Assembly (NCBI GenBank): GCA_007116105.1
Contig: SKJA01000163.1
Span: 1-27,477, forward strand
Reading direction: 5' to 3'
DNA: 27,477 bases
Source of the DNA: Candidatus Izemoplasma sp.
GTDB lineage: Bacteria; Bacillota_I; Bacilli_A; Izemoplasmatales; Izemoplasmataceae
Position numbers and translations under genes: made by a program. Positions 1-20,240 of the stretch are shown here, in pieces (within the stretch, counting starts at the first letter, position 1; each line of letters opens with the position of its first letter). The notes below the pieces were generated by a model that did no database searches, had not been told where the DNA came from, and saw only the letters and a list, made by a program, of their open reading frames with translations.

Positions 1-744
1 AACTCAAACTTGCCACCAGGTCAAGAAGGCCACTTAGTGGATTATCAGTATTTGATTGACAACCGTGTCAACTTTGCCTACAACAACCGTCTTGACCGTT
101 CGGATGGCTTTCGTGTAGGAGAATTGGTGCCCTATACGAATTACCGTGGTGAGACCGTCTTGCCCACCGATGTACAATGCCCATCATCCGTGACGAATCG
201 GGACGAAGAAGTCTTCTTAATCACCACCATCGAAGCGTTGATTCGAGCCTTTCCGAATCAATTGTTCACGCTTGAAATTAAGCAATCTGGTGACCTTGGT
301 GGTGAAGCGTTCGAGACGCTGCTGACGTTACTTGACACCTTAAACGAAGAGATTGAAGGCGATTTGTATGGTCGGATTCTCTTGGGAACCTTCCACCGCG
401 ACATCTACGATCGTTTCGTTGAAGCGAAACGCACCACGCACCCTAACTTGCTCTTTTCGCCACAAGAAGATGTCGTCTATCAATACTTCATCTTGCACCA
501 TTTACGTTTGACCCAGTTTTTCAGAGCACCCGTGGCTGCTTTGCAAGTGCCCCAAGCGTCGGGAGGGTTCACCCTTAACACCCCCTTATTTGTGCGCACC
601 GCTCAACGTCACAACATCGCTGTCCAATATTGGACCATCAACCGTGAAGAAGACATGCGCACCTTGATTGAGCTAGGTGTGGATGGCATCATCACAGACC
701 GTGTTGACCTTTTAAGACAAATACTGGATGAATTTGAAGATTAG
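1..744 (+). CDS. Glycerophosphodiester phosphodiesterase (GDPD family), 5'-truncated by the window edge; paralog of 906..1940
   Basis: Frame is open from base 1 (aac tca aac ttg = NSNL, matching NSDL in the paralog). LEIK metal-ligand strand and C-terminal YWTIN...LGVDGIITDR are GDPD motifs. Confidence 0.9.
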   Translation, partial: NSNLPPGQEGHLVDYQYLIDNRVNFAYNNRLDRSDGFRVGELVPYTNYRGETVLPTDVQCPSSVTNRDEEVFLITTIEALIRAFPNQLFTLEIKQSGDLGGEAFETLLTLLDTLNEEIEGDLYGRILLGTFHRDIYDRFVEAKRTTHPNLLFSPQEDVVYQYFILHHLRLTQFFRAPVAALQVPQASGGFTLNTPLFVRTAQRHNIAVQYWTINREEDMRTLIELGVDGIITDRVDLLRQILDEFED

Positions 745-905: not shown

Positions 906-1940
906 ATGACCTTACTCAAACGCATCGGGTTAGGATTTTTGATTTTATTTGTGCTTTGGGCCTTGATCGCCATCCTTCCATTGCCCCAGCAAGTGCAAGG
1001 CGATAATGCCTTTCGAGCATCCCATCAAGGACCCCTAAACATTGCGCATGGAGGCAGCCACCATTTGTTTCCTGAATCAACGATGGAAGCCTACTGTAAT
1101 GCATTTAACATCGACCCTGATGTCGTCTTTGAAGCCGACTTAGTGCTCACGCGCGACAAGGTTCTCGTCATCAGTCATGACCGAACCTTTGATCGCAATT
1201 CAGACTTGCCTCCGGGACAAGAAGCGCATTTAGTAGACTATCAGTTCTTGATTGAGAACCGTGTCAATTTTGCTTTCAACAGCCCGCTGGATGGTCCCAA
1301 TGGGTTTCGCATCGGTGACCTTGTGCCCTACACCAATCACCTTGGCGAAACCGTTAACCCCACCGACGTTGCTTGTCCATCTTCCGTCACATCTCGGGAT
1401 GATGAGGTTTTTTTAATCACCACCATCGAAGAACTTGTGCGTGCCTTTCCAACCCAACGTTATGTGCTCGAAATTAAGCAGTTCGGAGACCTTGGCGCAG
1501 AAGCACTCGCAACCTTACTGACATTGTTTGATGCGTTGAACGAAGAGATGGAGGATGACCTATACAGCCGCGTCCTTTTAAGTTCGTTCCACCGCGACAT
1601 CTATGATTTGTTGGTCGAAGCGAAACAAACCACCCACCCAAATCTTTTGTTTTCCCCACAAGAAGATGGGGTGTATCAATACTTCATTTTGCACCATTTG
1701 CGTTTGACCCAATTTTTTAGAGCGCCGATTGCGGCTTTGCAAGTCCCGCAGTCCTCTGGAGGCTTTACACTCAACACCCGCTTATTTGTGCGTACAGCAC
1801 AGCGTCACAACATCGCGGTACACTACTGGACCGTGAACGACGAAGACCAAATGAGACAACTCATTGCCTTAGGCGTGGACGGCATCATCACCGACCGTGT
1901 CGACCTGTTAAGACAAATCCTCGATGAACTTGAAGATTAG
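906..1940 (+). CDS. Membrane-anchored extracellular glycerophosphodiester phosphodiesterase (GDPD family)
   Basis: N-terminal basic + hydrophobic anchor (MTLLKRIGLGFLILFVLWALIAIL). Motifs IAHGG..PEST, FEADLVLTRDKVLVISHD.T.DR, LEIK, YWTVN, GVDGIITDR. Confidence 0.92.
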   Translation: MTLLKRIGLGFLILFVLWALIAILPLPQQVQGDNAFRASHQGPLNIAHGGSHHLFPESTMEAYCNAFNIDPDVVFEADLVLTRDKVLVISHDRTFDRNSDLPPGQEAHLVDYQFLIENRVNFAFNSPLDGPNGFRIGDLVPYTNHLGETVNPTDVACPSSVTSRDDEVFLITTIEELVRAFPTQRYVLEIKQFGDLGAEALATLLTLFDALNEEMEDDLYSRVLLSSFHRDIYDLLVEAKQTTHPNLLFSPQEDGVYQYFILHHLRLTQFFRAPIAALQVPQSSGGFTLNTRLFVRTAQRHNIAVHYWTVNDEDQMRQLIALGVDGIITDRVDLLRQILDELED

Positions 1941-1959
1941 CCGCATTGCGGCTTTTTTT
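1939..1959 (+). terminator. Intrinsic terminator of the second GDPD gene
   Basis: AGCCGC-att-GCGGCT plus T run; near-identical to 743..763. Confidence 0.85.
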
Positions 1960-1998
1960 CTGCGCCAAGATACGCTATAATGAAACCCGGTGATTTTT

Positions 1999-3552
1999 AT
2001 GAGTTATATGGATGTCAAAGCACTCTCGTTTAGCTATCAAGACAATCCCTTATTAGAAGACGCCTCGGTGCGTTTATTTGAGGGTGAACATGTGGTTTTA
2101 GTGGGGCCAAATGGAACCGGTAAAACGACCTTTTTAAAGCTGCTTTCAAGGCAGTTAAAACCCGATCAAGGCACTGTTGAGACACTGCCTAAGCTTTCAC
2201 TGGGTTACTTAGATCAATACGCGACGTTGCCTAAAGCCCACACCGTCATGAGTTATATGGCTGAGGCCTATGCCGCTTTATTTGAAAAAGAAGCACAAAT
2301 GGAAGAACTTTACGTCCAAGCTGCGAACGCAGAAGAGACGGTTCAAATGAAACTGCTTAACCGTGCCGCAACGCTGGGGGAAGAGCTTCTCGCCACCAAT
2401 TTTTACGCTTTCAAAAGCAACATTCTTAAGTTTTTACAGGGGCTTGGTATGGATGAGAGCACCTTACAGCTTCCCCTCGAGAAGTGTTCGGGTGGGATGC
2501 GCGCGAAAGTGATGCTCGCCAAACTTTTGTTAGAAGAACACGACGTTTTATTGTTGGATGAGCCCACCAACTTCTTGGATGCTGAGCATGTCGCATGGTT
2601 GAGTAAGTTTCTACAAAGCTACAGCAAAACGTTCGTAGTGATTTCCCATGATCAAGCCTTTTTAGCCGAAATCGCGACGGTGGTTTGGGCGCTTGAGCGA
2701 CGCCAAATTGAACGTTACAAAGGATCGTTTGAGACGTATTTAGCGACCGCTCAGCTCCGTCAAGAACAACACCAAAAAGCGTTTGTGACACAACAAAAGT
2801 TCATCAAAAAAACGGAAGCTTTCATTGCCAAAAACATTGCCCGTGCGACCACCACGAAGCGGGCTCAGTCCAGACGTAAAATGTTGGCTAAAACGCAACG
2901 CATTGCGCCCCCTTTAAAGACTCGAACGTATGTCTTTGCCTTTCCTTTTAGTACCCCCACAGGACGTGATGTGTTAAAGGTCAAACATTTAGAAATCGGC
3001 TATCACGAGCCATTGGTTGAACCGCTAGATTTTATTCTTCGCAAAGGAGAAAAAGTGGTCATCACTGGTGAGAATGGGATTGGAAAAACCACCCTTATCA
3101 AGACCCTAACCCAGCAGTTAAGTCCCTTACAAGGCTCCTATGAGTGGATTGACACGGCTCAAGTCTCCTATTTTGCTCAAGACAGTGATTTAGACGATCG
3201 TTTCACGCCTTTTCAAACCATTCATGAAGCTTATCCTCAGTTTGATCGTCGCCAAGTCTTTACCCTGTTAGCCCAGCACGGCTTAGATGCTGATTTGGCG
3301 TTACGTCCTTTAAAGACGCTTTCAGGTGGTGAGAAAACCAAGGTGCGTTTAGCGTTACTAAAACATCAAAAAAGTAATGTGTTGATCATGGACGAACCAA
3401 CCAATCACTTAGATCAAGCGGCGAAAGAAGCACTTCTAGATGCCTTGATTGAGTATCCAGGGACACTCTTGTTGGTCTCACATGAACGCCGGTTTTACGA
3501 AGCTGTTTGTGAGAGTGAAATCAGTCTATATGAAGCACAAAATGAGCGTTAA
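1999..3552 (+). CDS. ABC-F family ATPase (ribosome-associated, YfmM/YkpA-like)
   Basis: Two NBDs and no TM segments: GPNGTGKT and GENGIGKT Walker A, CSGGM and LSGGE signatures, two DEPTN Walker B, inter-domain linker FIAKNIARATTTKRAQSR. Start placed at ATG 1999 (GGTGA SD at 1989-1993) rather than GTG 1990. Confidence 0.9.
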   Translation: MSYMDVKALSFSYQDNPLLEDASVRLFEGEHVVLVGPNGTGKTTFLKLLSRQLKPDQGTVETLPKLSLGYLDQYATLPKAHTVMSYMAEAYAALFEKEAQMEELYVQAANAEETVQMKLLNRAATLGEELLATNFYAFKSNILKFLQGLGMDESTLQLPLEKCSGGMRAKVMLAKLLLEEHDVLLLDEPTNFLDAEHVAWLSKFLQSYSKTFVVISHDQAFLAEIATVVWALERRQIERYKGSFETYLATAQLRQEQHQKAFVTQQKFIKKTEAFIAKNIARATTTKRAQSRRKMLAKTQRIAPPLKTRTYVFAFPFSTPTGRDVLKVKHLEIGYHEPLVEPLDFILRKGEKVVITGENGIGKTTLIKTLTQQLSPLQGSYEWIDTAQVSYFAQDSDLDDRFTPFQTIHEAYPQFDRRQVFTLLAQHGLDADLALRPLKTLSGGEKTKVRLALLKHQKSNVLIMDEPTNHLDQAAKEALLDALIEYPGTLLLVSHERRFYEAVCESEISLYEAQNER

Positions 3553-3622
3553 AAACATAAAAAAATAAAGCGCGAAAGACCCTCCACAACGGAAGGTTTG
3601 ATATGCTAGAAGAGGTGATGGT

Positions 3623-4096
3623 ATGGAAGAAGCATTTTTGTGGTACATTCTCATGTTTTCCGCCTACATGATTTTCACATTGAACACAACGTACACATTC
3701 ATAGCCTTAAGGAACCGATTTTCCTGGTTGTTGGACGCTCGCTTAGCCGATCGCTTTTGGACACTGTTGAACTGGTTGGTTTACACGAGCATGGCCTTAA
3801 CAGGGGTTGTCCTTGTTGTGTGGCTCATCATGCTTATCTTAGTGCCCTTTGAAGCGGTAGCTTTCGGCATTTCTTTGGCAGTTTCAACTGTCTTAGGCGT
3901 GGGATTTTATGCCTCTGCCAAACAGTTAAAGACACGACTTTTTGTTCGTTTAAACCTACCTGAAGAACAGAAAAAATTCAATCAAACGTTGATTGCACCG
4001 AAACTCAGAGGTTTGGTGTTGACGTATGTTTTCATGAGTGCTGCAATCACCTACGGGCTGTTACATTTTTGGTTCACCAATCAAATCTTGCCTTGA
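3623..4096 (+). CDS. Hypothetical membrane protein (~4 TM), family not recognised
   Basis: 157-aa ORF with GAGGTG SD and four hydrophobic stretches. Confidence 0.75.
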   Translation: MEEAFLWYILMFSAYMIFTLNTTYTFIALRNRFSWLLDARLADRFWTLLNWLVYTSMALTGVVLVVWLIMLILVPFEAVAFGISLAVSTVLGVGFYASAKQLKTRLFVRLNLPEEQKKFNQTLIAPKLRGLVLTYVFMSAAITYGLLHFWFTNQILP

Positions 4097-4141
4097 TTGT
4101 CAAAAAAGTTACTTTTCCAACGGCTTATTGCGAGTACATTA

Positions 4142-4150
4142 TGATATAAT
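4142..4150 (+). promoter_or_regulatory. Extended -10 promoter (TGnTATAAT) of the nqr/rnf-like operon
   Basis: TGATATAAT ~67 nt upstream of ATG 4218. Confidence 0.6.
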
Positions 4151-4163
4151 CTAAGTATTAAAT

Positions 4164-4193
4164 AAGCATTTTTGCGATGAGCAAGATGCTTTT
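4164..4193 (+). other. Stem-loop in the nqr 5' leader (or terminator of the upstream gene)
   Basis: AAGCATTTTTGC-gatga-GCAAGATGCTT (11 pairs with one G-U and one bulge) followed by TTCAATTT. Confidence 0.5.
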
Positions 4194-4217
4194 CAATTTA
4201 AAGAAAGTGGTGACTTC

Positions 4218-5159
4218 ATGTCAACTAAAATTCAGGCGACACCCAATGTAAAACATTTGTGGATTTTATTTGGGGCGCTGTTCGTCTTACTGCTTGGTGC
4301 AGTTTTCCGTTATGGCCCTTACATTCTCGCCATCGCAGCGGTAGCCTACGGTGTCAGCTTATCGTTTGAGGTTTTGATTGCCAAAGCGCGAAAAAAAACA
4401 CTCGATCCAAGCTGGATGATTACGCCACTCATCCTCACCATGCTCGTCCCTCCCACGGCCCCTTTGTGGATGGTTGGTGTGGGCGCAGGCTTTGGTATTT
4501 TCTTTGGTAAATTGATTTTTGGTGGCTATGGAAACAATGTGTTCAACCCAGCTGCGGTAGGCGCTTTGTTTTTAACCGTCTCCTTCCCTGTTCTTATGGC
4601 CACACGTTGGTATTCGCCAGTGAATGGTTGGTTTAACCCAGGCAGTCAAGCCTCGCTCGATGCGATCGCCTCAGCGACGCCACTCATTCAACTGAACGCA
4701 GGGACGTTTAACAGTTCTTTGGTTGATTTATTGCTTGGAGGCACCGCCGGCAGCGTCGGTGACGCGTTTCGTCTTGGCGCCATCATTTTAGGCATCGCTT
4801 TGATTGTGCTTAAAGTCATTGATTGGCGTATTCCAGTTGCCATCATCGGTAGTTTTTTCCTCTTTACGGTACTGGGAAGCTTCATCACCGATCGGGTCGC
4901 AGATCCCATCAACTCCCTTTTCGTGGGTGGGTTAATCTTTGGGGCTTTCTTTATGGCGACAGAACCCGTGACGGCTCCGAAGCTGGCTAAGAGTAAAGTG
5001 TTTTATGGGATTGGGATTGCCTTCATTGTGTTCTTGATTCGTAATTTTGGCGCTTTTCCTGAAGGTGTAATTTTTGCCATCATCATCATGAACGCTGTGG
5101 GGACATTGTTTGATGGCTGGTTTGCTAAACCTAATTTAGATAAGGAGGTGAGCGCATGA
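4218..5159 (+). CDS. nqrB: NqrB/RnfD-family integral membrane subunit (covalent FMN carrier)
   Basis: PPTAPLW, FGKLIFGGYGNNVFNPA, FMN site SATPL, FFMATEPVT, PEGV..AI..MN...LFD. At 313 aa it has RnfD-like length. Confidence 0.9.
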   Translation: MSTKIQATPNVKHLWILFGALFVLLLGAVFRYGPYILAIAAVAYGVSLSFEVLIAKARKKTLDPSWMITPLILTMLVPPTAPLWMVGVGAGFGIFFGKLIFGGYGNNVFNPAAVGALFLTVSFPVLMATRWYSPVNGWFNPGSQASLDAIASATPLIQLNAGTFNSSLVDLLLGGTAGSVGDAFRLGAIILGIALIVLKVIDWRIPVAIIGSFFLFTVLGSFITDRVADPINSLFVGGLIFGAFFMATEPVTAPKLAKSKVFYGIGIAFIVFLIRNFGAFPEGVIFAIIIMNAVGTLFDGWFAKPNLDKEVSA

Positions 5160-5764
5160 ATAAGACAAAACAAATGCTTGTCTTTGTCCTAGCGATGGGC
5201 TTAATTACCTCGTTTTTACTGGTGGGTGTCAGTTTGTTAACCCGTGAACGTATTTTAGCCAACCAACAAGCTGCGCTTCAATCCGCTATTTTACAAGCCA
5301 ATGACATTGCTTTTACGGCGGGTGAAGTCAATGAAATCTTTAATGATCGTATTGAAGTGATTGAGCTTGAAGAAGAAGGTTCAGACACGCCGCTCGTCTT
5401 TTTCCGTCATCCAGCTTCAGGAAACATCAGTTTTCAATTTGAAGGTGGCGGTGTTTGGGGTCCAATCATTGGGGTGATTACCCTTGAAGATGATTTTAAA
5501 ACCATTGTTGAAATCACGATTTTAGAACAAGAAGAGACGCCAGGACTTGGTGGCATCATCACCGAGCGAGCGTACTTAAATAATTATGTGGGAGCACATC
5601 TGTCAGAGTCCATCACCATTTCGCACGATTCTGTGCCGGGTGACCCCAATTACGTCGATGCAATCACTGGTGGAACACGCACCAGTGAACGTTTTGAAAC
5701 CATCTTAAGAACAGCTTATCAGCGCCGCGCCGATGTTTGGCGTACGTTCGCTGAGGAAGAATAG
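5156..5764 (+). CDS. nqrC: NqrC/RnfG-family FMN-binding subunit with N-terminal TM anchor
   Basis: G.GVWGPI.G, EQEETPGLGG, flavinylation-type motif VDAITGGTRTS; ATGA overlap with the nqrB stop. Confidence 0.9.
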   Translation: MNKTKQMLVFVLAMGLITSFLLVGVSLLTRERILANQQAALQSAILQANDIAFTAGEVNEIFNDRIEVIELEEEGSDTPLVFFRHPASGNISFQFEGGGVWGPIIGVITLEDDFKTIVEITILEQEETPGLGGIITERAYLNNYVGAHLSESITISHDSVPGDPNYVDAITGGTRTSERFETILRTAYQRRADVWRTFAEEE

Positions 5765-5773
5765 GAGGGCCAC

Positions 5774-6403
5774 ATGAAACTGATACGCTTACGCTATAAA
5801 AAATGGTATAACATCAGCCGTGATGGCCTCACGACGAACAATCCAATCGCGATTGCGGTGTTAGGGATTTGTTCGGCTTTAGCGGTCACGAACCGCGTTG
5901 ATAATGCCATTGCGATGGGACTTGCGGTGGTGTTCGTGGTGACCATGAGTTCATTGACGGTCTCACTGATTCGAAACTTTATCCCAAGCCGTGTCCGCAT
6001 GGTGACGTATATGGTTATTATTTCTTCGTTTGTGATCATGGTGCAACTGTTTTTAGAAGCGTTTTTCCCACTCATTGCGGCAGCCCTTGGTGCGTTCTTA
6101 GGGTTGATCATCACCAACTGTATTGTCATGGGACGAGCAGAAGCCTTTGCGGTGAAAAATCCCTTGCGCTATACCTTCTTTGATGGGATTGCCAATGGCT
6201 TAGGATACACCTATGTCCTTGTCATCGTCGCGGTGGTTCGTGAACTTCTAGCGTTTGGCACCATCCTCGATGTGCGCATCATGCCTGACACTTGGACAAA
6301 CTGGGTGGCCATGGCACTTGCACCTGGTGGTTTCTTTGTTTTAGGGCTGCTCATTTGGGCTTTAAGAGAACTCACCAACAATTTCGAAACGGTGTCAGAA
6401 TAG
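5774..6403 (+). CDS. nqrD: NqrD (RnfE homolog) membrane subunit
   Basis: NNPIAIAVLGICSALAVT (NqrD-type CSALAVT rather than RnfE CP.LAVT) and LIITNCIVMGRAEAFA; both Fe-S Cys present. Confidence 0.9.
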   Translation: MKLIRLRYKKWYNISRDGLTTNNPIAIAVLGICSALAVTNRVDNAIAMGLAVVFVVTMSSLTVSLIRNFIPSRVRMVTYMVIISSFVIMVQLFLEAFFPLIAAALGAFLGLIITNCIVMGRAEAFAVKNPLRYTFFDGIANGLGYTYVLVIVAVVRELLAFGTILDVRIMPDTWTNWVAMALAPGGFFVLGLLIWALRELTNNFETVSE

Positions 6404-6410
6404 GAGGCTT

Positions 6411-6995
6411 ATGATGGTAGATATCTTTGATCTTTTTATTACCTCGGTACTGACGCAAAACATCGCTTTAACGTTTATCTTAGGGATGTGTCCTTTAATT
6501 GCCATTTCGACCAATGTGAAAAACGCCAAGGGCATGGGGATTGCGGTCATTTTTGTGGTCACCTTAACCGGCATCATCAACTACCCGATTTACCTTCTTT
6601 TAAGGGCGACGGGGACCGAAACGCTTTCCTTGCTTGTGTTCATCACCACGATTGCTGCAACAGTGCAATTTTTAGAGCTCTTTATTGAAAAATATTTCCC
6701 CAAAATGTACAACAGTTTCGGCCTATTTTTACCTTTGATTACGGTAAACTGCGTGGTCTTAGCGGTCTCACTGTTCTTTGTGAATCGTGACTACAACTTC
6801 ATTCAAACCGCGACCTTTTCTTTCGGTGCCGGGATTGGTTGGTTTCTGGCGATTGTCCTTGTGGCGGGCATTCGTGAAAAACTCGCTCAAAACACAGGCA
6901 TTCCACGTGGCTTAGCTGGCCGTGGCATTGTCTTCATTATCTTAGGCATCTTATCGCTTGCGTTTATCGGCTTTACAGGACTTTCAATCTTTTAA
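6411..6995 (+). CDS. nqrE: NqrE (RnfA homolog) membrane subunit
   Basis: QNIALTFILGMCP, FLPLITVNC (NqrE-type TVNC), GIGWFLAIVLVAGIREKL; both Fe-S Cys present. Confidence 0.9.
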   Translation: MMVDIFDLFITSVLTQNIALTFILGMCPLIAISTNVKNAKGMGIAVIFVVTLTGIINYPIYLLLRATGTETLSLLVFITTIAATVQFLELFIEKYFPKMYNSFGLFLPLITVNCVVLAVSLFFVNRDYNFIQTATFSFGAGIGWFLAIVLVAGIREKLAQNTGIPRGLAGRGIVFIILGILSLAFIGFTGLSIF

Positions 6996-7010
6996 GAAGG
7001 ACGTGATCCC

Positions 7011-8096
7011 ATGGATTTACTCTTTATACCTATTATTCTCGTTTCGGTTTTAGTGGTGATCACTTTAATCATTGTGTGGGCTGACAATTTTTTTGGTACG
7101 GCAGGCGAGCGCACGCTTCTTGTCAACAACGAAAAAGAAATTAAAGTCACCGACAGTGACACCGTACTAAACCTACTTACGAAAGAAAAAATCTTCATTC
7201 CTTCCGCCTGTGGTGGAAAGGCAACGTGTGGCTTTTGTAAGGTCCGCGTCACAGAAGGCGGGGGCGACGTTCGCCCGACTGAAGAACCGTTTTTAGATAA
7301 AGAACAAAAAGCGAACAACGTACGTCTGTCTTGCCAAGTTAAAGTACGTGAAAACATTAAGGTTGAGATTCCGAAAAGTCTTCTAGGTGCTTTGGAGTAC
7401 AAAGCGAAAGCCATCAAAGTAGAAGACCTAACCTACGATACGAAGTTGGTGCGCTTTAAACTCATCGAACCCGATACCATGGAGTTCAAACCTGGTCAGT
7501 ATGCGCAAATCAAAGTCCCAGGCATTGAAATCATTCGTGCATACTCCATTGCTTCAGACCCGAACGATCCTCATCACATTGAGTTTATCATCCGTTTAGT
7601 GCCTGGCGGTTTAGCAACCACCTTTGTTCACAAAGCGTTACTTGCGGGTGATGACATCATCATCACAGGACCTTATGGTGATTTCTTCTTAAGAGAAGAG
7701 AGTAAGCGTGACATGGTCTGCATCGCCGGGGGATCAGGTAAAGCGCCCATTCGTTCCATTCTATACCGTCTTCAAGACATGGGGATGCCAAGAAAAGTTC
7801 GCTATTTCTTTGGTGCGAAAGCTGTACGTGACTTGTACTATACGGAAGAGATGCAAGCCATTGCTAAAGCGTTTCCGAACTTTGAGTACATTCCCGCGCT
7901 CTCACATCCGGAAGACACCGACGATTGGAAAGGTGAAACTGGTCTGATTACTGACGTCCTCGACCGCATGACAGGGGATTTAAGTGAAAGTGAAGCCTAC
8001 TTATGTGGCTCACCAGGGATGATTGATGCGTGTATTAAAGTTCTAAAAAAACACGACATAAAAGATGAAAATGTGTTATACGACAAATTTGGTTAA
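7011..8096 (+). CDS. nqrF: NqrF-like NAD(P)H:acceptor oxidoreductase (TM anchor + 2Fe-2S ferredoxin + FAD/NAD FNR domains)
   Basis: N-terminal TM helix; SACGGKATCGFC...RLSCQ; RAYSIAS; GPYGDF; IAGGSGKAPIRS; YLCGSPGM; C-terminal YDKFG. Confidence 0.88.
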   Translation: MDLLFIPIILVSVLVVITLIIVWADNFFGTAGERTLLVNNEKEIKVTDSDTVLNLLTKEKIFIPSACGGKATCGFCKVRVTEGGGDVRPTEEPFLDKEQKANNVRLSCQVKVRENIKVEIPKSLLGALEYKAKAIKVEDLTYDTKLVRFKLIEPDTMEFKPGQYAQIKVPGIEIIRAYSIASDPNDPHHIEFIIRLVPGGLATTFVHKALLAGDDIIITGPYGDFFLREESKRDMVCIAGGSGKAPIRSILYRLQDMGMPRKVRYFFGAKAVRDLYYTEEMQAIAKAFPNFEYIPALSHPEDTDDWKGETGLITDVLDRMTGDLSESEAYLCGSPGMIDACIKVLKKHDIKDENVLYDKFG

Positions 8097-8102
8097 AAAA
8101 AT

Positions 8103-8127
8103 AAGCCACCGCTTGCGGTGGCTTTTT
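8103..8127 (+). terminator. Intrinsic terminator of the nqr-like operon
   Basis: AAGCCACCGC-tt-GCGGTGGCTT plus TTT, 7 nt after the nqrF stop; preceded by an A-rich stretch. Confidence 0.88.
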
Positions 8128-8143
8128 GAGAGGAGCTTTTTGA

Positions 8144-8557
8144 ATGAAACGACTGACCATGATTTTGATGATGCTGTTTGTTTTAATCGTTTCGGGGTGT
8201 ACGCGTCCATCGTCGTTTGAACGGCGCATGGACGATCGTTGGGATGCCATTGAGACTTACATACTGACCGCCGATGGAAACCGTGAAGGGGCTCAGATTA
8301 CGCGCTTTGATTACTTATGTTATACCTTTGAGCTTGAAGGGTTTTTGCCAACGGATATCTGTATGTATTTTGTGAGTGTGACACACCCTATTGACCGAAA
8401 TCGCTTTTGGGTTGTTTCGCATCGTTTTGATGAGGATGACGATAGCTTTGCCCACGATGAACTGGTATCACAAAGCCATTTAGACGCTGAACGTCAAGTG
8501 TTTATGGATTTTCTTGAAGAAAATGACACCGTCTTTATTGCAGGAACAAGAGATTGA
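8144..8557 (+). CDS. Hypothetical lipoprotein
   Basis: GAGAGGAG SD; signal MKRLTMILMMLFVLIVSG-C with lipobox VSGC; acidic mature part with no lysine. Confidence 0.8.
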   Translation: MKRLTMILMMLFVLIVSGCTRPSSFERRMDDRWDAIETYILTADGNREGAQITRFDYLCYTFELEGFLPTDICMYFVSVTHPIDRNRFWVVSHRFDEDDDSFAHDELVSQSHLDAERQVFMDFLEENDTVFIAGTRD

Positions 8558-8574
8558 AAAATTTACATTTTCTC

Positions 8575-8603
8575 TTCACATCGTTTTCAAAGTAAGGTAT
8601 AAT
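8575..8603 (+). promoter_or_regulatory. oppA promoter P1 (sigma70-type)
   Basis: TTCACA (8575-8580), 17-bp spacer, TATAAT (8598-8603). Confidence 0.7.
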
Positions 8604-8612
8604 AGAAAAAAA

Positions 8613-8664
8613 TTCACAAGTTCCACAACTTTTTCAATCAAAATGTTCACAAATTCCACAACTT
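8613..8664 (+). repeat. 19-bp direct repeat x2 with 33-bp period; candidate operator
   Basis: TTCACAAGTTCCACAACTT (8613-8631) and TTCACAAATTCCACAACTT (8646-8664), one mismatch. Confidence 0.8.
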
Positions 8665-8674
8665 GTGGTATAGT
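8646..8674 (+). promoter_or_regulatory. oppA promoter P2 (sigma70-type with extended -10)
   Basis: TTCACA (8646-8651), 17-bp spacer, TATAGT (8669-8674) preceded by TG. Confidence 0.65.
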
Positions 8675-8680
8675 ATCTAT

Positions 8681-8771
8681 AACATCCTTATATAATAGGA
8701 TGTGCTCCTGAGAAGGAGTTTCAACGTTGGTATAAACTGCATAGGTTTTAGAGCGCTAAAAACTTATGTGG
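8681..8771 (+). other. Structured 5' leader of oppA (three consecutive hairpins); possible cis-regulatory RNA
   Basis: ACATCCT/AGGATGT (8682-8703); GCTCCT-GAGA-AGGAGT (8704-8719, GNRA loop); CATAGGTTTTAG/CTAAAAACTTATG (8740-8768). Confidence 0.55.
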
Positions 8772-8818
8772 AATATATAAAAAAACTTGTATTCAATAAA
8801 TGAGAGGAGAAACAAGTA

Positions 8819-11122
8819 ATGAAAAAATTATTATTAGCTTTATCGTTTCTTGTGCTAGTCTTTGGTCTTGCAGCTTGTGGCGAAGATACACCCCCAAGCG
8901 TACCGACTTTATCTGGCGTAGGAAATGCAACTATCACTGTTGGTCAATCATTTGACCCACTCGCGGGTGTCAGTGCCAATGACGCGACAGATGGTAGCTT
9001 AACGTCAGCGATCACTGTAACTGGAACTGTTAACACTGCAGTTGCTGGTACATATACTTTAACGTATAGTGTAACCAACAGTGCAGGGGAAACTCGTACT
9101 GCAACGCGTACGATTACAGTTCAAGCTGTACAGCCTGATCCAGACCCAGACCCAGATCCGGACCCAGATCCAGATCCAGTTGGCGACTTTGTACTCGCCC
9201 AAGGATTCTACGATTTCAAGTTCGCTCCGGTCGATGTTAAGAATGCTTTCTTTGGTGCCGCTGAACGCTGGTTGCTTCAAACAGGCGCAGGGGGAATTCC
9301 GATTTTCGCGAACTCTACCTTCAGCTTATTTAGCTCCCGTATTCAGTTACCAGTAGAAAACTTCGTACCAGTCATGGGCTTTGGTACTGGCTTTGCTACC
9401 ATGAGTGCTGATGACTCAACTGTTCGTATGGACGATGGTCGTCCAGGTAATGCAGGCGAATACACCTACCGTGGTGCATTCATCTTCTCACCTACGACTT
9501 TCAACCAATGGATCGCAGATGACTCAGTAAGTTCTGACGTAAACGTATGGTTCTTAGATTCTTTATATTACTTCGCGTTTAATGATGAGTTCACTGGATT
9601 CGATTTATTACCTTCAATGGCTGCTAGCATGCCTATCCCAATTGACAGTGAAGTCATTCTTGGTACTGTTGCTGCAAACACTTGGCGTATTGAACTCCGT
9701 GAAGATTTAGAGTGGTTCTACCACCCAAGCATTAACACTTCAGCCTTCCCAGAAGGTCATGAACGTATTACTGCTGAAGACTTCATTGGAACGTATCGTT
9801 TAGCGTTAGAAGAAGGTTGGTTCCGTGCGATTTCAGGCGGCGGCGACTTCTTAAATGCTGCACAACGTATCGTGGGTGCTCGTGAGTTCGTAGACGGCGA
9901 AGTCGAGTTCGACGAAGTTGGTTTACGTGTCATTGATGAGTTCACGATTGAATTCGAATTTGTTCCTCTAATGTCTGAATGGGACGTATCTTACTGGTTA
10001 TCAAGTATGGTTATGTCTCCAATTAACTTACACCTTCATGAAGTTGTAGGCGCAAGCTATGGTACTTCTCATACAACAATCGCTGCTCACGGCCGTATGT
10101 TTATTGATTTCTATGAGCCAGACAGCATCGTTCGTTTAAGAGAAAATCCAAACTTCCACAGCCCAAATAGAACGTTCTTCACAGGCTTAAACTTCCAAAT
10201 TTTACCAGATCCAGACTTTGCCTTTGAAACATTCTTAGCCGGTGGTCTTGACATCGGTGGCGTACCAACTGCGCGTTTTGATGAGTTCTCATCTCACCCA
10301 GAGTTACGCTTTACACCAGGTGCTACTACGTTCCGTATGAACTTGAACGCATTAAAAACACCTGAAGCTCAAGAAGCAGCATTCCCAGGTTCTGGTTTCA
10401 CTCCTGAGCCAATCATTGGTTACCAAGATTTCCGTTTAGCAATGTACTTTGCCTTAGACCGTGAAGAAATTGCAAGAGATCTTATGAGAACTGCTGAACC
10501 ACAAATGTTCCACTTCACTCCTGCTTACTTAGTAGATCCACAAGGTGGTATCTCCTTCCGTGACACTGAGTTTGGTCCACTTGTTGGTGAAGGCTTCTCA
10601 AGATCAACCTTCGGATTCAACGAAGATGCTGCACGTGCACTTTGGATGCAAGCTATTAATCAAGCTGTTGCTGATGGCTTCTACAGCCCAGGCGATGTCA
10701 TTGAAATTGAACTTGTCATTCAAGCCGCTTCACCTGCTCAAGCATTGCTTGGCGACTGGGTTGAAGCACAGTTCGAAAGACTCTTTGTGGACACTGCCCG
10801 CAACATTCGCGTTGAAATCACCGTGACTGCTGCACCGTTCCCACAAAACTACTTTAACTACATCCTTCCAGGTACATTTGACCTTGGAATGGGCGGTATT
10901 TCTGGTGGTACATTAGACGCAGCTGGCTTCTTATCACAATACCGTGCTGATAACGCTGGTGGCTTCACCCTTAACTGGGGTCTTGACACTAACGTCGCGG
11001 AAATCCCTGTAACGTATACCATTGCAGGCGAAACCTTCCACGAAATTTGGTCATTTGATGCGATTCACCGTGCATTAACTGCTGGTGTCAACGTTGTTGA
11101 TGGCCGCGAAGTAGTCGAATAA
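8819..11122 (+). CDS. oppA: OppA-like (SBP family 5) substrate-binding lipoprotein with N-terminal Ig-like (DUF5011-type) domain and Pro-Asp linker; apparently circularly permuted
   Basis: Lipobox LAAC; Ig-like PTLSGV...FDPLAGVSANDATDG...GTYTLTYSVTNSAG...ATRTITV; SBP5 motifs WRIELREDLEWF, ITAEDF, RVIDEFTIEF, RENPNF, DFRLAMYFALDREEI; first gene of a BCDF operon. Confidence 0.9.
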   Translation: MKKLLLALSFLVLVFGLAACGEDTPPSVPTLSGVGNATITVGQSFDPLAGVSANDATDGSLTSAITVTGTVNTAVAGTYTLTYSVTNSAGETRTATRTITVQAVQPDPDPDPDPDPDPDPVGDFVLAQGFYDFKFAPVDVKNAFFGAAERWLLQTGAGGIPIFANSTFSLFSSRIQLPVENFVPVMGFGTGFATMSADDSTVRMDDGRPGNAGEYTYRGAFIFSPTTFNQWIADDSVSSDVNVWFLDSLYYFAFNDEFTGFDLLPSMAASMPIPIDSEVILGTVAANTWRIELREDLEWFYHPSINTSAFPEGHERITAEDFIGTYRLALEEGWFRAISGGGDFLNAAQRIVGAREFVDGEVEFDEVGLRVIDEFTIEFEFVPLMSEWDVSYWLSSMVMSPINLHLHEVVGASYGTSHTTIAAHGRMFIDFYEPDSIVRLRENPNFHSPNRTFFTGLNFQILPDPDFAFETFLAGGLDIGGVPTARFDEFSSHPELRFTPGATTFRMNLNALKTPEAQEAAFPGSGFTPEPIIGYQDFRLAMYFALDREEIARDLMRTAEPQMFHFTPAYLVDPQGGISFRDTEFGPLVGEGFSRSTFGFNEDAARALWMQAINQAVADGFYSPGDVIEIELVIQAASPAQALLGDWVEAQFERLFVDTARNIRVEITVTAAPFPQNYFNYILPGTFDLGMGGISGGTLDAAGFLSQYRADNAGGFTLNWGLDTNVAEIPVTYTIAGETFHEIWSFDAIHRALTAGVNVVDGREVVE
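9134..9178 (+). repeat. Coding hexamer repeat CCN-GAY x7, encoding the (Pro-Asp)7-Pro linker
   Basis: cct gat cca gac cca gac cca gat ccg gac cca gat cca gat cca. Confidence 0.95.
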
Positions 11123-11141
11123 TTTCCTGATTTAAGTTAAC

Positions 11142-11190
11142 AATGCTTTTAGAGCCACTCAAGACTCTTGGGTGGCTCTATATAAGCATT
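11142..11190 (+). other. Long intercistronic stem-loop 1 (oppA-oppB)
   Basis: TAGAGCCACTCAAG-act-CTTGGGTGGCTCTA (14 pairs incl. one G-U), extended by AATGCTT/AAGCATT. Confidence 0.85.
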
Positions 11191-11194
11191 TAAT

Positions 11195-11249
11195 TTAGGT
11201 TATTTGCTAAAATAAGTCATCACGGCTTATTTTAGCGAATTGAACTTAA
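11195..11249 (+). other. Long intercistronic stem-loop 2 (oppA-oppB)
   Basis: TTGCTAAAATAAGTC-atcac-GGCTTATTTTAGCGA (15 pairs incl. G-U), extended by TTAGGTT/AACTTAA. Confidence 0.85.
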
Positions 11250-11272
11250 TAAAAAAATAAAGAGGTGTTTTT

Positions 11273-12355
11273 ATGATTCGTTACTCCTTGATTAGAACCT
11301 TGTGGGTGTTCATCATTCTCGCGACGGTTTTATCGATCAACTTTATACTCCTTAAAAACGCACCACAACTACCCCCACCAACGGAAGAAGGACGCTCCAT
11401 TTATTATTCGCGTCAAGTTTCTGATGGGTTTATGACAGTGCGTATCGAACGCGATCCAGATTTAGTACGTGAAGCTCGTGAAAGTAGACCTACCTTCTTA
11501 AATCGACTTCCAAGAAATTCGGATTTTTTCCATGAAGGTGATCAAATCCGCATTTTTGAACCCGTTCCATTGATTCAACAATATTTTAGTTGGGTCAACA
11601 ACATTGTGACTGAATGGAACTGGGGTGTTTCTACGTGGGTTCAACCCAACGTTGAAGTGTTCGAGATTCTCATGTCCCGTATTCCGGTTACCATAAGGCT
11701 CAATCTTGTGGCTTTATTTTTCTATATTCCTATTGGATTTGCTTTAGGAATTCTAGCCGCATTAAGAAAGAATACATTGGTTGATAACTTTATATCAGTC
11801 TTTGTTATGGTTATGATTTCACTGCCAAGTTTCGTTATTATGACATTCTTGGTGTTGATTTTCGCCTTTGGACTTGGCTGGCTGCCCACATCCTTCCCCT
11901 CGAGTGACGTCACGGGTGCTGTCCAGTATACGGCCTTAGTATTACCCGTTTTAGGGCTGTCTTTTGGGGCGATTGCTTCACTCACACGGACCTCACGGGC
12001 AGAGTTAACGGAAGTTTTAACTTCAGAGTTTCTCTTGCTTGCAAGAACGAAGGGACTCTCACAAACTCAAGCTGTCTTGAGACATGCTTTGAGAAACTCC
12101 ATGGTTCCACTTGTACCCGGAATTATTGGTTCATTCGTTGGTTTACTGAGTGGTTCGGTCATCATTGAGTTAATTTATGCCATTCCTGGCACAGGGCGTA
12201 TTTTTATTCGTGCGATGACTCAAAACCAATACGACTTTAACCTAATTCTCGCGATTACCGCTTTCTATACCGTGGTTGGCTTATTCGCCATTTTATTGGT
12301 TGACTTATCGTATGGATTCGTAGATCCGCGTATTCGAATGGGGGCTAGAAAATAA
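11273..12355 (+). CDS. oppB: Oligopeptide-type ABC permease OppB
   Basis: RIPVTIRL, GILAALRKNT..D, SLPSFV, EAA loop EFLLLARTKGL....LRHALRNS..P, GSVIIELIYAIPGTG; enlarged first external loop. Confidence 0.93.
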   Translation: MIRYSLIRTLWVFIILATVLSINFILLKNAPQLPPPTEEGRSIYYSRQVSDGFMTVRIERDPDLVREARESRPTFLNRLPRNSDFFHEGDQIRIFEPVPLIQQYFSWVNNIVTEWNWGVSTWVQPNVEVFEILMSRIPVTIRLNLVALFFYIPIGFALGILAALRKNTLVDNFISVFVMVMISLPSFVIMTFLVLIFAFGLGWLPTSFPSSDVTGAVQYTALVLPVLGLSFGAIASLTRTSRAELTEVLTSEFLLLARTKGLSQTQAVLRHALRNSMVPLVPGIIGSFVGLLSGSVIIELIYAIPGTGRIFIRAMTQNQYDFNLILAITAFYTVVGLFAILLVDLSYGFVDPRIRMGARK

Positions 12356-14244
12356 TGCAAATTCATCAAAAACTAGATAAAGTAGACAAGTCTTCCTTTG
12401 AGTTCGTCCAACGGGATCATAAAATCTATGATAAAAAGTTTGAAACGAAACCCATTGGGTATTTTAAAGATGCGATGATTCGTTTTACAAAAAACAAAAC
12501 AAACGTTATCGCTAGTATCATTCTCTTTACTTTGATTATGCTTTCGATTTTTATCCCAATCTTTACAAGTCGTAACTATACAACATTAGAGCCAAGACTT
12601 ACCTTGTTACCACCACGCATTCCAATCGTTGAGCGTTTTGGTATCTTTGACGGCACACGCATCATTCCAGGTCAAGAAGTCGACATTTCTACCATTGATC
12701 CTGAAACAGGCATTGGTCTTCCATTTAACACGAACTTTCCACATGAGTTCATCATTCCTGGAAGTGTCACCAATGAAAGTGTTCCATGTACCAGTACACA
12801 AGAATCTTGTTTGGGCGGGACAGTACGGATCACATTGCGTGAACAGTCTTTAACGACCTCTTACCGGACGCCAACGCTCCTTAACTTTACGCTTTCACAG
12901 GCAACTCCTCACATTTTAACCATTGATTTAAACGATATTTCTGAAACTGCAACCTTAAATGTTTTAATGCGTCGTGATTTCGTGTCTGATTATGAAGTCA
13001 TTGCAAGCATAACTGAAGCGGATGTTCACACGTTTAACTTGGTAGACCTTTTAGGTGAAAGCACCTTCTTATCCACCGAAATGAGACTCCAAGTGGTGTC
13101 AACTGAAATTGCAGGCTTTGTTGAGTTTAACAGCATTGACATTCGTCAACAAGGCGCAGAAGACCCACAACATCGTTTTGAAGGCCGTAACTTAGCACTC
13201 TTTCCACTGGTCTCAGGCGCGGGTGCCTCACGCATCACGCGAAGTGACGGTCAACTTCTTTTATCGACGTTCCGCTTCGACCCTTACGCGCGTGCGTTAG
13301 GTCCTTGGCGTCGTCCTACCTTCTCGGCTGAAGAGTTTTATGCCTTAATGGAAGCGAACGAAGCGACTTGTGGCATCGTTCCAACCAATCCAGTGGGCCA
13401 TAACTTTCCAGAAGGTTGCCCCGTCTTAGAAGTACGTGGGCGCACTGAGAGTGTTATCGTTGGTGGCATTGAGCGATACTCTTATGATTTAACCCTTGAT
13501 TTTGCGACCTTTAGAGGATTTGACACAACTCCGTTTTTCTTCTTTGGCACTACGAATGGTGGACGTGATTTATTTGCGTTAACTTGGGTCGCCTTAAGAA
13601 CCAGTTTATTGATTGGTGTTGTGGCTTCAGCCATTAACATTTCGATCGGCGTCGTTTATGGAGCCATCTCGGGGTACTATGGCGGTAAAGTTGACATCTT
13701 AATGGAACGTTTCAGTGAGATCATTGCACGGATTCCATTCCTTGTTGTCTTAGCCATCATGGTGGCCTATTTTGGACCAGGCATTACAACACTCATTGTC
13801 GTCTTGATTGTGTCGGGATGGATTGGGGTGGCCAGTGTCACCCGGACTCAGTTCTATCGCTTTAAAGGACGTGAGTATGTCTTAGCTTCAAGAACACTTG
13901 GTGCAAAAGACTCACGACTCATTTTCCGTCACATTTTACCCAACGGCATCGGAACCATCATCACCGCAAGTGTCTTGATGATTCCCCTTGTCATCTTCAC
14001 AGAATCAACCTTGTCATTCCTAGGCTTCGGTATTGGCCATGGGCAATCGTTTAGCATTGGTCCCTTTGAGTTCTCCGGCGTTTCCATTGGTGTTTTATTG
14101 GCGGATGGACGTGAAGAGATGTTAAACAACCCACATTTAACGTATTTCCCTGCGATTATTATTTCTATTTTGATGATCACATTCAACATGTTCGGTAACG
14201 CCTTACGCGATGCCTTCAATCCATCCTTAAGGGGGTCTGAATAA
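12355..14244 (+). CDS. oppC: Oligopeptide-type ABC permease OppC with a ~300-aa extracytoplasmic insertion
   Basis: KDAMIRFTKNK N-terminal helix; FGTTNGGRDLF; GAISGYYGGKVD..MER; REYVLASRTLGA...IFRHILPN; ESTLSFLGFG; NMFGNALRDAFNP; TAATG overlap with oppB. Confidence 0.93.
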   Translation: MQIHQKLDKVDKSSFEFVQRDHKIYDKKFETKPIGYFKDAMIRFTKNKTNVIASIILFTLIMLSIFIPIFTSRNYTTLEPRLTLLPPRIPIVERFGIFDGTRIIPGQEVDISTIDPETGIGLPFNTNFPHEFIIPGSVTNESVPCTSTQESCLGGTVRITLREQSLTTSYRTPTLLNFTLSQATPHILTIDLNDISETATLNVLMRRDFVSDYEVIASITEADVHTFNLVDLLGESTFLSTEMRLQVVSTEIAGFVEFNSIDIRQQGAEDPQHRFEGRNLALFPLVSGAGASRITRSDGQLLLSTFRFDPYARALGPWRRPTFSAEEFYALMEANEATCGIVPTNPVGHNFPEGCPVLEVRGRTESVIVGGIERYSYDLTLDFATFRGFDTTPFFFFGTTNGGRDLFALTWVALRTSLLIGVVASAINISIGVVYGAISGYYGGKVDILMERFSEIIARIPFLVVLAIMVAYFGPGITTLIVVLIVSGWIGVASVTRTQFYRFKGREYVLASRTLGAKDSRLIFRHILPNGIGTIITASVLMIPLVIFTESTLSFLGFGIGHGQSFSIGPFEFSGVSIGVLLADGREEMLNNPHLTYFPAIIISILMITFNMFGNALRDAFNPSLRGSE

Positions 14245-15719
14245 TGGCTGATAAAAACATTAAGTTATCGGTACAAAACTTGTCAGTATCGTTTCGGACA
14301 ACTCAAGGGTTTGTACGGGCTGTACGCGATGTAAGTTTTGACTTATATCAAGGTGAAACGCTTGCCGTGGTGGGTGAATCTGGTAGTGGGAAATCCGTAA
14401 CTTCAAGAGCCATCATGGGAATTTTAGAGAAAAACTCCGTGACGGACTCAGGAAAAATTATTTATGAAGATCAAGACATTTTAAAAATTCGTGAAGAAGA
14501 TTTCCATAAGTTACGTGGGAACAAAATAGGCATGATCTTCCAAGATCCCCTTTCAAGCTTAAACCCAATCATGCGCATTGGTAAGCAAATCACCGAAGGC
14601 ATGATCGTCAACGGTAAACATTTGAAGAACCGTAAAAAAGAACTTTCTCATGCTCAACGTCAAACCTACTTAAACCTCATTGACAATAAAGCCAAAGACG
14701 TTGCAGATTTTAAAGCAAAGAAAAAAGAACTGAAAGCATTAAAAGAAACGGAAGAACTTGCGTTACTTCAAAGTAAACACTCAGAAAAACTGGCACAATA
14801 TGCGCCCGCAATAAAAGAAGCTAGGGCGGCTTATAAAGCAGCAAAATCGAACGCTAAAAAACAAGTTGCTAAAGAATGGGCTGAAGAAAAAGCAAAATAT
14901 GCCCAAAAGATTTCAGCTGTTAAAGCCAACATGTCTTCCGCTTCACCCGATCAAAAGAAAGAACTCAAACATCAAGTTGAGGAACTTCAAGAGCAACTTC
15001 GTCGGTATAAAAAAGTCACTCAACGCGAAGCACGTGAACGCGCCGTTGAAGTTATGGCGGAGGTTGGTATTCCCGAGCCTGAAAAACGTTTACGTCAATA
15101 TCCCTTCCAGTTTTCTGGGGGCATGCGTCAACGTATCGTTATTGCCATTGCGCTGACCGCAAACCCAGACTTACTGATTTGTGATGAGCCAACAACGGCT
15201 TTAGACGTAACCATTCAAGCACAAATTCTCGAGTTGATTAAACGCTTAAAAGAAGAACGTGACTTAACCGTTATCTTCATCACCCATGACCTTGGTGTTG
15301 TGGCCAACATGGCAGATCGCGTTGCGGTCATGTATGCTGGTAAAGTGGTTGAAATTGGACGTTCAGAAGAAGTTTTCTACAATCCAAAACATCCTTACAC
15401 CTGGGCTCTCCTTTCTTCGATGCCAGACCTTTCAAGTACCTCACGTCTATCTTCGATTCCAGGAACCCCACCCAACATGTTGTTCCCACCCAAAGGCGAT
15501 GCCTTTGCGGATCGTAACCAATATGCGATGAAAATAGATTTTGAAGAGCAACCACCGTACTTTAAAGTCAGTGACACACATTATGCGGCCACGTGGTTAC
15601 TCCATGAAAATGCACCGAAAGTGACCATGCCTCAAATCATTCAAGACCGTATTGATGCCATGAAAGAACGCACCAAAGCCCGAATTGATCAACAAGATAC
15701 TGAAAGTGGGGTGACGTAA
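14244..15719 (+). CDS. oppD: Oligopeptide ABC ATPase OppD with a ~130-aa Lys-rich helical insertion
   Basis: GESGSGKS, IFQDPLSSLNP, YPFQFSGGMRQR, DEPTTALDV, ITHDLGVV, NPKHPYT, PKGDAFA.R; TAATG overlap. Confidence 0.95.
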   Translation: MADKNIKLSVQNLSVSFRTTQGFVRAVRDVSFDLYQGETLAVVGESGSGKSVTSRAIMGILEKNSVTDSGKIIYEDQDILKIREEDFHKLRGNKIGMIFQDPLSSLNPIMRIGKQITEGMIVNGKHLKNRKKELSHAQRQTYLNLIDNKAKDVADFKAKKKELKALKETEELALLQSKHSEKLAQYAPAIKEARAAYKAAKSNAKKQVAKEWAEEKAKYAQKISAVKANMSSASPDQKKELKHQVEELQEQLRRYKKVTQREARERAVEVMAEVGIPEPEKRLRQYPFQFSGGMRQRIVIAIALTANPDLLICDEPTTALDVTIQAQILELIKRLKEERDLTVIFITHDLGVVANMADRVAVMYAGKVVEIGRSEEVFYNPKHPYTWALLSSMPDLSSTSRLSSIPGTPPNMLFPPKGDAFADRNQYAMKIDFEEQPPYFKVSDTHYAATWLLHENAPKVTMPQIIQDRIDAMKERTKARIDQQDTESGVT

Positions 15720-15720
15720 A

Positions 15721-17246: not shown

Positions 17247-17276
17247 AAAAAAAAGTAGACAAATCGTCTACTTTTT
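17247..17276 (-). terminator. Intrinsic terminator of the DUF2177-DUF1295 operon
   Basis: On the minus strand AAAAAGTAGAC-gattt-GTCTACTTTTT then more T; overlaps the TAG stop. Confidence 0.8.
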
Positions 17277-20214: not shown

Positions 20215-20240
20215 AAATGTCTGTCGGAAGGCAGACATTT
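20215..20240. terminator. Bidirectional terminator between convergent genes
   Basis: AAATGTCTGTC-GGAA-GGCAGACATTT (11 pairs), A-rich on the left and T-rich on the right. Confidence 0.85.

Follow-up and report, generated by a model that had tools for sequence, protein, structure and literature searches.

The side chains of lysine and tyrosine have pKa values of ~10.5 and ~10, respectively, and arginine stays charged. Among proteins of alkaliphilic Bacillus, M-protease and alkaline cellulase K are reportedly alkaline-adapted secreted enzymes, as set out by Shirai et al. We analysed a stretch of 27,477 nucleotides from a Candidatus Izemoplasma sp. assembly (GCA_007116105.1, contig SKJA01000163.1, positions 1 to 27,477; hereafter the window), which carries an oppABCDF operon and an nqrBCDEF-like cluster, and in which the predicted exterior parts of proteins are almost free of lysine. 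Lysine loss has been described as an alkaline adaptation of octaheme nitrite reductases from Thioalkalivibrio (PMC5433712) and of glycoside hydrolases from Alkalitalea saponilacus (PMC13591233). The window proteins resemble such secreted and periplasmic enzymes in having fewer lysines, kept or raised arginine and a net negative surface; the enzymes work at pH 9.5–11. Unlike the enzymes, which are single proteins with 1.7–4.7% Lys, the whole exterior proteome here averages 0.7% Lys, permease ectodomains and loops are included, and a Tyr-to-Phe shift runs in parallel.

Allen et al. (2022, eLife, PMC9110029) have reported that the Lys/Arg preference is reversed across the proteome in Sec substrates of Bacillus halodurans. 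Both cases are genome-wide contrasts between secreted and cytosolic proteins, with arginine over lysine outside. The B. halodurans reversal was described as modest and explained by Sec transport with the pH gradient inverted, whereas the depletion described here is near-total, occurs in a wall-less lineage, is accompanied by loss of tyrosine, and was compared with relatives that lack the trait. The principle is thus already known, both for alkaline enzymes and proteome-wide for B. halodurans, and no new mechanism is revealed. What is new is the wall-less Izemoplasmatales-type lineage, the near-completeness of the depletion, the controlled comparison with relatives, and the separation of a pH signal (Lys, Tyr) from a salt signal (acidity). 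The analyses below show a compartment- and residue-specific purge of lysine and tyrosine in a soda-lake organism, very probably a wall-less Izemoplasmatales-type bacterium whose exterior parts are under selection by high pH.

The window (GC ~44%) encodes, by Pfam assignment, two GDPD phosphodiesterases, an ABC-F ATPase, the five-gene nqrBCDEF-like cluster, a small lipoprotein, the oppABCDF operon and housekeeping genes. Each open reading frame (ORF) was translated and its residues tallied. The exterior pieces and their cytoplasmic controls, with strand in brackets, were as follows.

1..744 (+): partial GDPD-family phosphodiesterase (PF03009), 5' end lost at the contig end; 2 Lys and 19 Arg in 247 amino acids, an exterior-type composition.
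906..1940 (+): second GDPD phosphodiesterase (GDPD2; PF03009) with an N-terminal signal/anchor; mature residues 29–344 hold 3 Lys, 19 Arg and 47 Asp plus Glu.
5156..5764 (+): NqrC/RnfG-like FMN-binding subunit (PF04205); outer domain, residues 31–202, with 1 Lys (K115) and 10 Arg.
7011..8096 (+): NqrF-like cytoplasmic reductase (Fer2, FAD_binding_6, NAD_binding_1), a control; 30 Lys, 16 Arg.
8144..8557 (+): small lipoprotein, family not assigned (lipobox LIVSGC, no Pfam match); mature part with 0 Lys, 11 Arg and 26 Asp plus Glu.
8819..11122 (+): OppA lipoprotein, Ig-like domain plus SBP_bac_5 (Pfam); mature part of 747 amino acids (residues 21–767) with 3 Lys, 35 Arg, 20 Tyr and 65 Phe.
11354..11665 (+): exterior loop 1 of OppB (residues 28–131; PF00528); 1 Lys at the membrane edge, 10 Arg.
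12355..12504 (+): cytoplasmic N-tail of OppC (residues 1–50), an internal control within the same polypeptide; 10 Lys, 2 Arg.
12562..13569 (+): ectodomain of OppC (residues 70–405, 336 amino acids); 0 Lys, 25 Arg, 7 Tyr, 26 Phe.
14244..16860 (+): cytoplasmic ATPases OppD and OppF (Pfam), controls; 49 Lys and 28 Arg in OppD, 36 Lys and 20 Arg in OppF.
20239..21141 (-): RNase HIII-type RnhC (PF01351, PF11858), a cytoplasmic control; 31 Lys, 7 Arg.

Translation and counting reproduced exactly all six lysine counts made by hand in an earlier reading of the same DNA (the first-pass annotation), and its description of the cytoplasmic neighbours NqrF, OppD, OppF and RnhC as Lys-rich agrees with the counts listed. 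Pooled, the seven exterior pieces amount to 2040 amino acids, of which 10 are Lys (0.49%) and 129 Arg. At the cytoplasmic Lys frequency of this genome 147 lysines would be expected in those 2040 residues (binomial P = 2e-51), and at the lipoprotein Lys frequency of relatives with ordinary lysine contents, 73 (P = 7e-21). Every one of the 13 OppC lysines, and three of the four in OppB, is on the canonical cytoplasmic side; they include the EAA-loop lysines K504 and K518, invariant in the ortholog alignment. The remaining one, K28 of OppB, is the sole lysine of loop 1 and sits at the membrane edge. The OppC N-tail is Lys-rich in all orthologs, and the ectodomain spans 0 to 30 Lys among them.

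The contrast was then followed through the whole assembly (1.08 Mb, 183 contigs, 71% complete), in which a codon-usage ORF caller that also recovered the gene map of the window called 1102 genes. Lipoproteins were defined by a strict lipobox and represented by their mature part, and cytoplasmic proteins by the lack of a hydrophobic segment. The 21 mature lipoproteins contained 0.7% Lys and 5.1% Arg, with a median K/(K+R), the lysine share of lysine plus arginine, of 0.09; for 215 cytoplasmic proteins the values were 7.2%, 5.0% and 0.59 (Mann–Whitney P = 9e-14; area under the curve, AUC, 0.994). A broader signal/anchor class yielded the same result. Depletion thus extends beyond the positions at which it had been noticed to the entire 1.08-Mb genome and is confined to outside-exposed parts, the cytoplasm being unaffected, as seen both in the class AUC and in the tail and ectodomain of OppC. 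This is a clean natural example of a proteome split at the membrane, with lysine used freely inside and almost never outside.

A compositional artefact would attribute the pattern to GC or codon bias, to horizontally acquired surface genes or to mis-called genes. G+C content at third codon positions (GC3) is ~0.46 here, compared with 0.15–0.29 in five relatives of the same family, a large rise on this lineage, and high GC3 does slightly lower K/(K+R) overall (cytoplasmic proteins, 0.59 here versus 0.67–0.74 in relatives). GC3 is nearly equal, however, in lipoprotein genes (0.472) and cytoplasmic genes (0.459), and codon composition is therefore not the cause of the depletion. The switch within one gene, from 10 Lys and 2 Arg in the OppC tail to 0 Lys and 25 Arg in its ectodomain, already refutes an artefact; moreover, orthologs align over their full length and the genes recur at 99% identity in an RNA run. 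We give this explanation practically no credence, and the first-pass statement that no GC or codon effect is at work was correct.

Relatives were compared by the same pipeline. In the window genome, K/(K+R) by class was 0.12 for lipoproteins and 0.59 for cytoplasmic proteins. Two relatives with ordinary lysine contents (K-normal), G011 (complete, 1.88 Mb) and G009, gave lipoprotein values of 0.66 and 0.69, cytoplasmic values of 0.67 and 0.74, and AUCs of 0.52 and 0.56, respectively; their lipoproteins contain 3.5–3.8% Lys, compared with 0.7% here. Values were also obtained with the cultured Liberiplasma polymorphum (G003; mud volcano), which falls in the same family grouping (lipoproteins 0.45, cytoplasmic 0.69, AUC 0.83), and with G016 (0.45, 0.71 and 0.91).

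For a wider sample we used OppC, orthologs of which were found in 38 of 40 relatives; an alignment-based OppC scan led to 80 named loci. (A single-protein scan of genome contigs for relatives of MutS2 gave no match, and an exact look-up of OppA in the assembly collection yielded no record.) The nearest loci belong to 'Candidatus Izimaplasma' and Izemoplasmataceae metagenome-assembled genomes (MAGs); the names of several are those of Kulunda soda-lake series (CSBr16_, CSSed and B1Sed10_). Across 76 exterior Opp domains (OppC ectodomain plus OppA), K/(K+R) ranged from 0.05 to 0.80, and the window tied for the lowest value, 0.05. Ranking lowest together with seven Kulunda MAGs (0.06–0.26) was 'binchicken_co32_313' (0.05), whose runs are labelled 'soda lake metagenome', while named marine, gut, digester and groundwater organisms lay at 0.43–0.76. 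Rows not known to come from soda lakes spanned 0.05–0.80 and included every row above 0.27; among the 76 orthologs, no row of named non-soda-lake origin fell below 0.27. Cytoplasmic OppD at the same loci remained at 0.56–0.77 throughout. The sister-clade MAG series M30B/M50B/M55B, AGTU and SRR40300xx are also Lys-poor, and their habitats could not be established.

A tree of the cytoplasmic OppD placed the window in a clade of eight rows, all Lys-poor, with a Shimodaira–Hasegawa-like approximate likelihood ratio (SH-aLRT) support of 99. On this single-gene tree, whose rows are not independent, the label 'low' requires at least four changes, and the trait has therefore shifted repeatedly. Soda-lake sisters of the window genome stand at 0.20–0.27, with additional depletion on the genome's own branch.

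The residues that took the place of lysine and tyrosine were examined in orthologs. In 25 columns with Lys in at least 40% of K-normal orthologs, the window has Arg at 11 and Lys at none, the remainder being small or acidic residues. Lipoprotein orthologs, of which there were only five exterior pairs, replaced the relative's Lys by Arg at 29% of positions and by Ala at 16%, and kept it at 11%; in cytoplasmic orthologs, 9% became Arg and 46% were kept. Correspondingly, lipoprotein Arg is 5.1% here and 1.6–1.9% in the K-normal relatives. Tyrosine shows a parallel change. Lipoproteins of the window genome contain 3.0% Tyr and 5.9% Phe, a Y/(Y+F) ratio of 0.34, whereas those of G011 and G009 contain 6.0–7.4% Tyr and 4.5% Phe (0.57–0.62); cytoplasmic Y/(Y+F) is 0.49–0.56 in all three genomes. 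The relative's Tyr is Phe at 31% of exterior and 10% of cytoplasmic orthologous positions, and of 51 conserved-Tyr columns in OppA and OppC the window has Phe at 20 and Tyr at 17. With model pKa values, raising the pH from 7 to 10 leaves lipoproteins of the window genome with 93% of their positive charge, and those of G011 and G009 with 81–82%.

Replacement of lysine by arginine had been put forward in the first-pass annotation as a sign of an alkaliphile. The depletion is real, and yet lysine loss with arginine gain has been described for halophilic and alkaliphilic proteins alike (PMC5433712), so that it is not diagnostic alone and cannot by itself separate alkali from salt. A salt-driven origin would run as follows: contact with the brine is limited to exported proteins in a 'salt-out' halophile, and these alone gain the signature. 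A fall in Lys with a rise in Arg does stand among the halophilic strategies listed in the same study; the exterior proteins here are acidic (isoelectric point, pI, 4.1–4.9) and low in Lys with Arg retained, as are the proteins of salt-in organisms and the exported proteins of moderate halophiles, and soda lakes contain salt (Cock Soda Lake, 55 g/L). Exterior Asp plus Glu, however, amounts to 14.3% here, below the 15.4–17.7% of K-normal relatives, and G016, with 23%, still has a lipoprotein K/(K+R) of 0.45. Phe is raised (5.9% versus 4.5%), whereas halophilic adaptation reduces large hydrophobic residues (PMC5433712), a class taken here as Tyr, Phe, Ile and Leu. Over the 76 orthologs, K/(K+R) followed Y/(Y+F) (rho 0.63, P = 1e-9) and showed no correlation with Asp plus Glu (rho -0.15, P = 0.21). 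The Tyr-to-Phe shift agrees with a pKa of ~10, and MAGs of Haloplasma contractile and of Halanaerobiales, their own habitats not verified, keep a K/(K+R) of 0.47–0.57. What separates pH from salt, then, is that Tyr shifts to Phe and that acidity is not raised.

A salt-in proteome also disagrees with the data, the cytoplasm being neither acidic nor low in lysine (median pI 6.17, 35% of proteins above pI 7, 7.2% Lys). Halophilic adaptation of the exported proteins was likewise rejected on the Asp plus Glu and Phe contents, and halophily as the main cause on these two and the ortholog correlation. We consider salt improbable as the driver, and high pH is the better explanation of the sequence comparisons. 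Acidity itself proved uninformative: the first-pass annotation had counted Asp/Glu richness and low pI towards an alkaline signature, but lipoproteins of relatives are even more acidic (pI 4.05–4.25, compared with 4.5 here), and pI and Asp plus Glu were discarded as alkaliphile markers. Of the two quantities it had proposed to compute genome-wide, K/(K+R) discriminates and pI does not; Y/(Y+F), which it had not named, discriminates as well.

Three soda-lake relatives of the binchicken_co32 series (L076/G016, L042 and L041) have Opp ectodomains that match that of the window in lacking Lys and are far more acidic, at 20–23% Asp plus Glu. These relatives probably come from a saltier soda brine, and they show that the lysine signal and the acidity signal vary independently.

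The habitat itself can be read from sequencing runs. Window DNA recurs, with a word share of 0.76, in a run that bears the label 'soda lake metagenome' and, with a share of 0.47, in a metatranscriptome of the same study labelled 'alkali sediment metagenome'; together with the Kulunda soda-lake MAGs as nearest named relatives, these labels bear out the first-pass guess of a soda-lake-type habitat. From the label we infer an ambient pH near 10. The CSBr16 and CSSed16 MAGs came from Cock Soda Lake, where the pH was 9.9, salt stood at 55 g/L and carbonate alkalinity at 0.62 M (PMC6704655).

Several points weigh against selection by high pH as the cause. The value of pH 9.9 refers to the lake from which the nearest named relatives came, not to the sample of the window itself. 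Halophiles, too, lose lysine and gain arginine (PMC5433712), and given the salinity of soda lakes salt may have contributed. Gene, lipoprotein and transmembrane calls were simple heuristics, not SignalP or DeepTMHMM. Only 95–400 kb of each of the seven relatives went through the pipeline, the relatives are not statistically independent, and the habitats of G011 and G009 were not verified. Finally, the proteome-wide signal is much weaker in two soda-lake genomes, G015 and G004, whose lake has that pH of 9.9; habitat pH alone is therefore not what sets the degree of depletion. On the other side, the first-pass annotation had looked to neutral-pH relatives for an equal depletion that would undo its reading, and G011 and G009 lack it, while all strongly depleted relatives with a readable origin come from a soda lake.

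The cytoplasm has an ordinary Lys-rich proteome; in all parts facing the medium, selection by high pH would have worked against side chains whose titration falls near the pH outside. Such parts comprise lipoproteins and anchored enzymes, the ectodomains of permeases and their long exterior loops, and the FMN-binding outer domain of the Nqr-like complex. Lysine gives way most often to arginine, which stays charged, and otherwise to neutral residues, and tyrosine largely to phenylalanine; exterior ion pairs, solubility and fold stability would thereby be freed from groups that change charge at ambient pH. Ion pairs and fold stability are the classical explanation for alkaline enzymes (PMC5433712, PMC13591233). 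An exterior lysine might do harm because salt bridges are lost, because its neutral amine is reactive, or because the Sec 'proton ratchet' no longer works.

The last of these could also act by itself, at the stage of export. E. coli and B. subtilis favour lysine in their Sec substrates, arginine being rate-limiting, and lysine has been proposed to cross SecY deprotonated and to be re-protonated outside in neutralophiles (PMC9110029). Under an inverted pH gradient, with acid inside and alkali outside, lysine leaving SecY would not be re-protonated and would lose its edge over arginine; the reversed preference in the alkaliphile B. halodurans was ascribed to the pH gradient (PMC9110029). A lost advantage, though, predicts parity with the cytoplasm (~0.6) rather than a ten-fold depletion to ~0.1, leaves the Tyr-to-Phe shift unexplained, and sits poorly with slow-to-export arginine still being kept at 5%. 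As the cause, export kinetics are thus very improbable; they may add to selection by high pH as a contributor at most.

The completeness of the purge (0 Lys in a 336-residue ectodomain) and the extra depletion relative to soda-lake sisters suggest that exterior lysine may be actively harmful rather than useless, for instance through chemical modification of the neutral amine in 0.6 M carbonate at pH ~10. We regard this as possible but rather doubtful. If true, exterior K/(K+R) together with Y/(Y+F) would make a quantitative, genome-derived pH meter for uncultured organisms, lysine would be a prediction-free marker of topology, and the few remaining exterior lysines would flag indispensable residues. 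Conservation or essentiality of the surviving lysines was not borne out in the ortholog alignment: of the only three in mature OppA (K134, K141 and K513), K134 and K141 fall in variable Lys/Arg/Ser columns, and at the column of K513 (codon AAA, window 10355–10357) all 34 orthologs compared have Gly. K513 may reflect a local misalignment, a strain variant or a genuine odd substitution. Short of a meter, exterior Lys/Arg and Tyr/Phe ratios might be developed to indicate habitat pH from sequence alone, free of the salt signal that acidity carries, and the window proteins might serve as templates for alkali-stable binding proteins and phosphodiesterases.

The first-pass annotation had further proposed lysine as a built-in marker of topology. 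Non-membrane segments of at least 80 amino acids in membrane-attached proteins are bimodal in K/(K+R), with 74 of 285 below 0.2 and the rest around 0.5–0.7, while 2 of 211 cytoplasmic proteins fall below 0.2. G011 and G009 have no long segment below 0.3, and segments below 0.2 are only a minority in the soda-lake genomes G015 and G004 and the congener G001. For short loops, crude transmembrane calls gave 2.5% Lys and 6.1% Arg on the Lys-poor side and 7.0% and 6.2% on the Lys-rich side, and multi-pass proteins oriented with the same crude caller by arginine alone carry Arg on both sides in this genome. The marker thus holds for long segments and is no more than a candidate for short loops. As the purge is near-complete, K/(K+R) of any long segment reports its side of the membrane. 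In known Nqr complexes the NqrC domain lies outside and NqrF inside, and the lysine contents of the window subunits agree (one in the FMN-binding domain, 30 in NqrF). The marker could be used to assign sides to long segments of undescribed membrane proteins in this genome and its soda-lake relatives, which are uncultured and wall-less.

The c subunit of the F-type ATP synthase bears on sodium energetics. Encoded at locus L251 (G000 contig C144:1000-1254), it reads GPGIGQG...AMAETTGLY and carries the full Na+-binding signature of Gln, Glu, Ser/Thr, Thr and Tyr. Its best solved matches are the Na+ rings 4BEM, 3ZK1 and 1YCE ('sodium ion specific'), those of Acetobacterium woodii, Fusobacterium nucleatum and Ilyobacter tartaricus, respectively. 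The cell probably runs a sodium-motive ATP synthase, and the c subunit indirectly supports Na+-coupled energetics of the cell; the first-pass annotation had proposed such coupling for the Nqr-like complex. The cluster at 4218–8096 consists of NqrB/RnfD, NqrC/RnfG, two Rnf-Nqr membrane subunits and an NqrF-type reductase, and is without an NqrA or RnfC gene; upstream, at 3623–4096, lies a 157-residue membrane protein of no assigned family.

Contigs of the RNA run that are 99% identical to the window span the nqr and opp genes. Contig depth reached ~1770 over oppA (window 8884–10659), by far the highest of the window, ran at ~2–160 over oppBCDF (11104–16875), and was 0 in intergenic stretches, including the upstream one; depth in the DNA run was flat at ~17. 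Depth this uneven suggests genuine transcription, even if expression is poorly measured by contig depth, and RNA of the binding-protein gene oppA seems far more abundant than that of the rest of the operon. Contigs of the soda-lake DNA run are one base short at window position 8095, the very end of nqrF, and at 17247, which are strain differences or assembly slips. In the OppA linker that follows the Ig-like domain (window 9137–9177), contigs of both runs contain a 41-base joint that 'goes back', the loose ends of which read as Pro-Asp/Pro-Glu repeats; this suggests that the acidic, proline-rich linker varies in length among strains.

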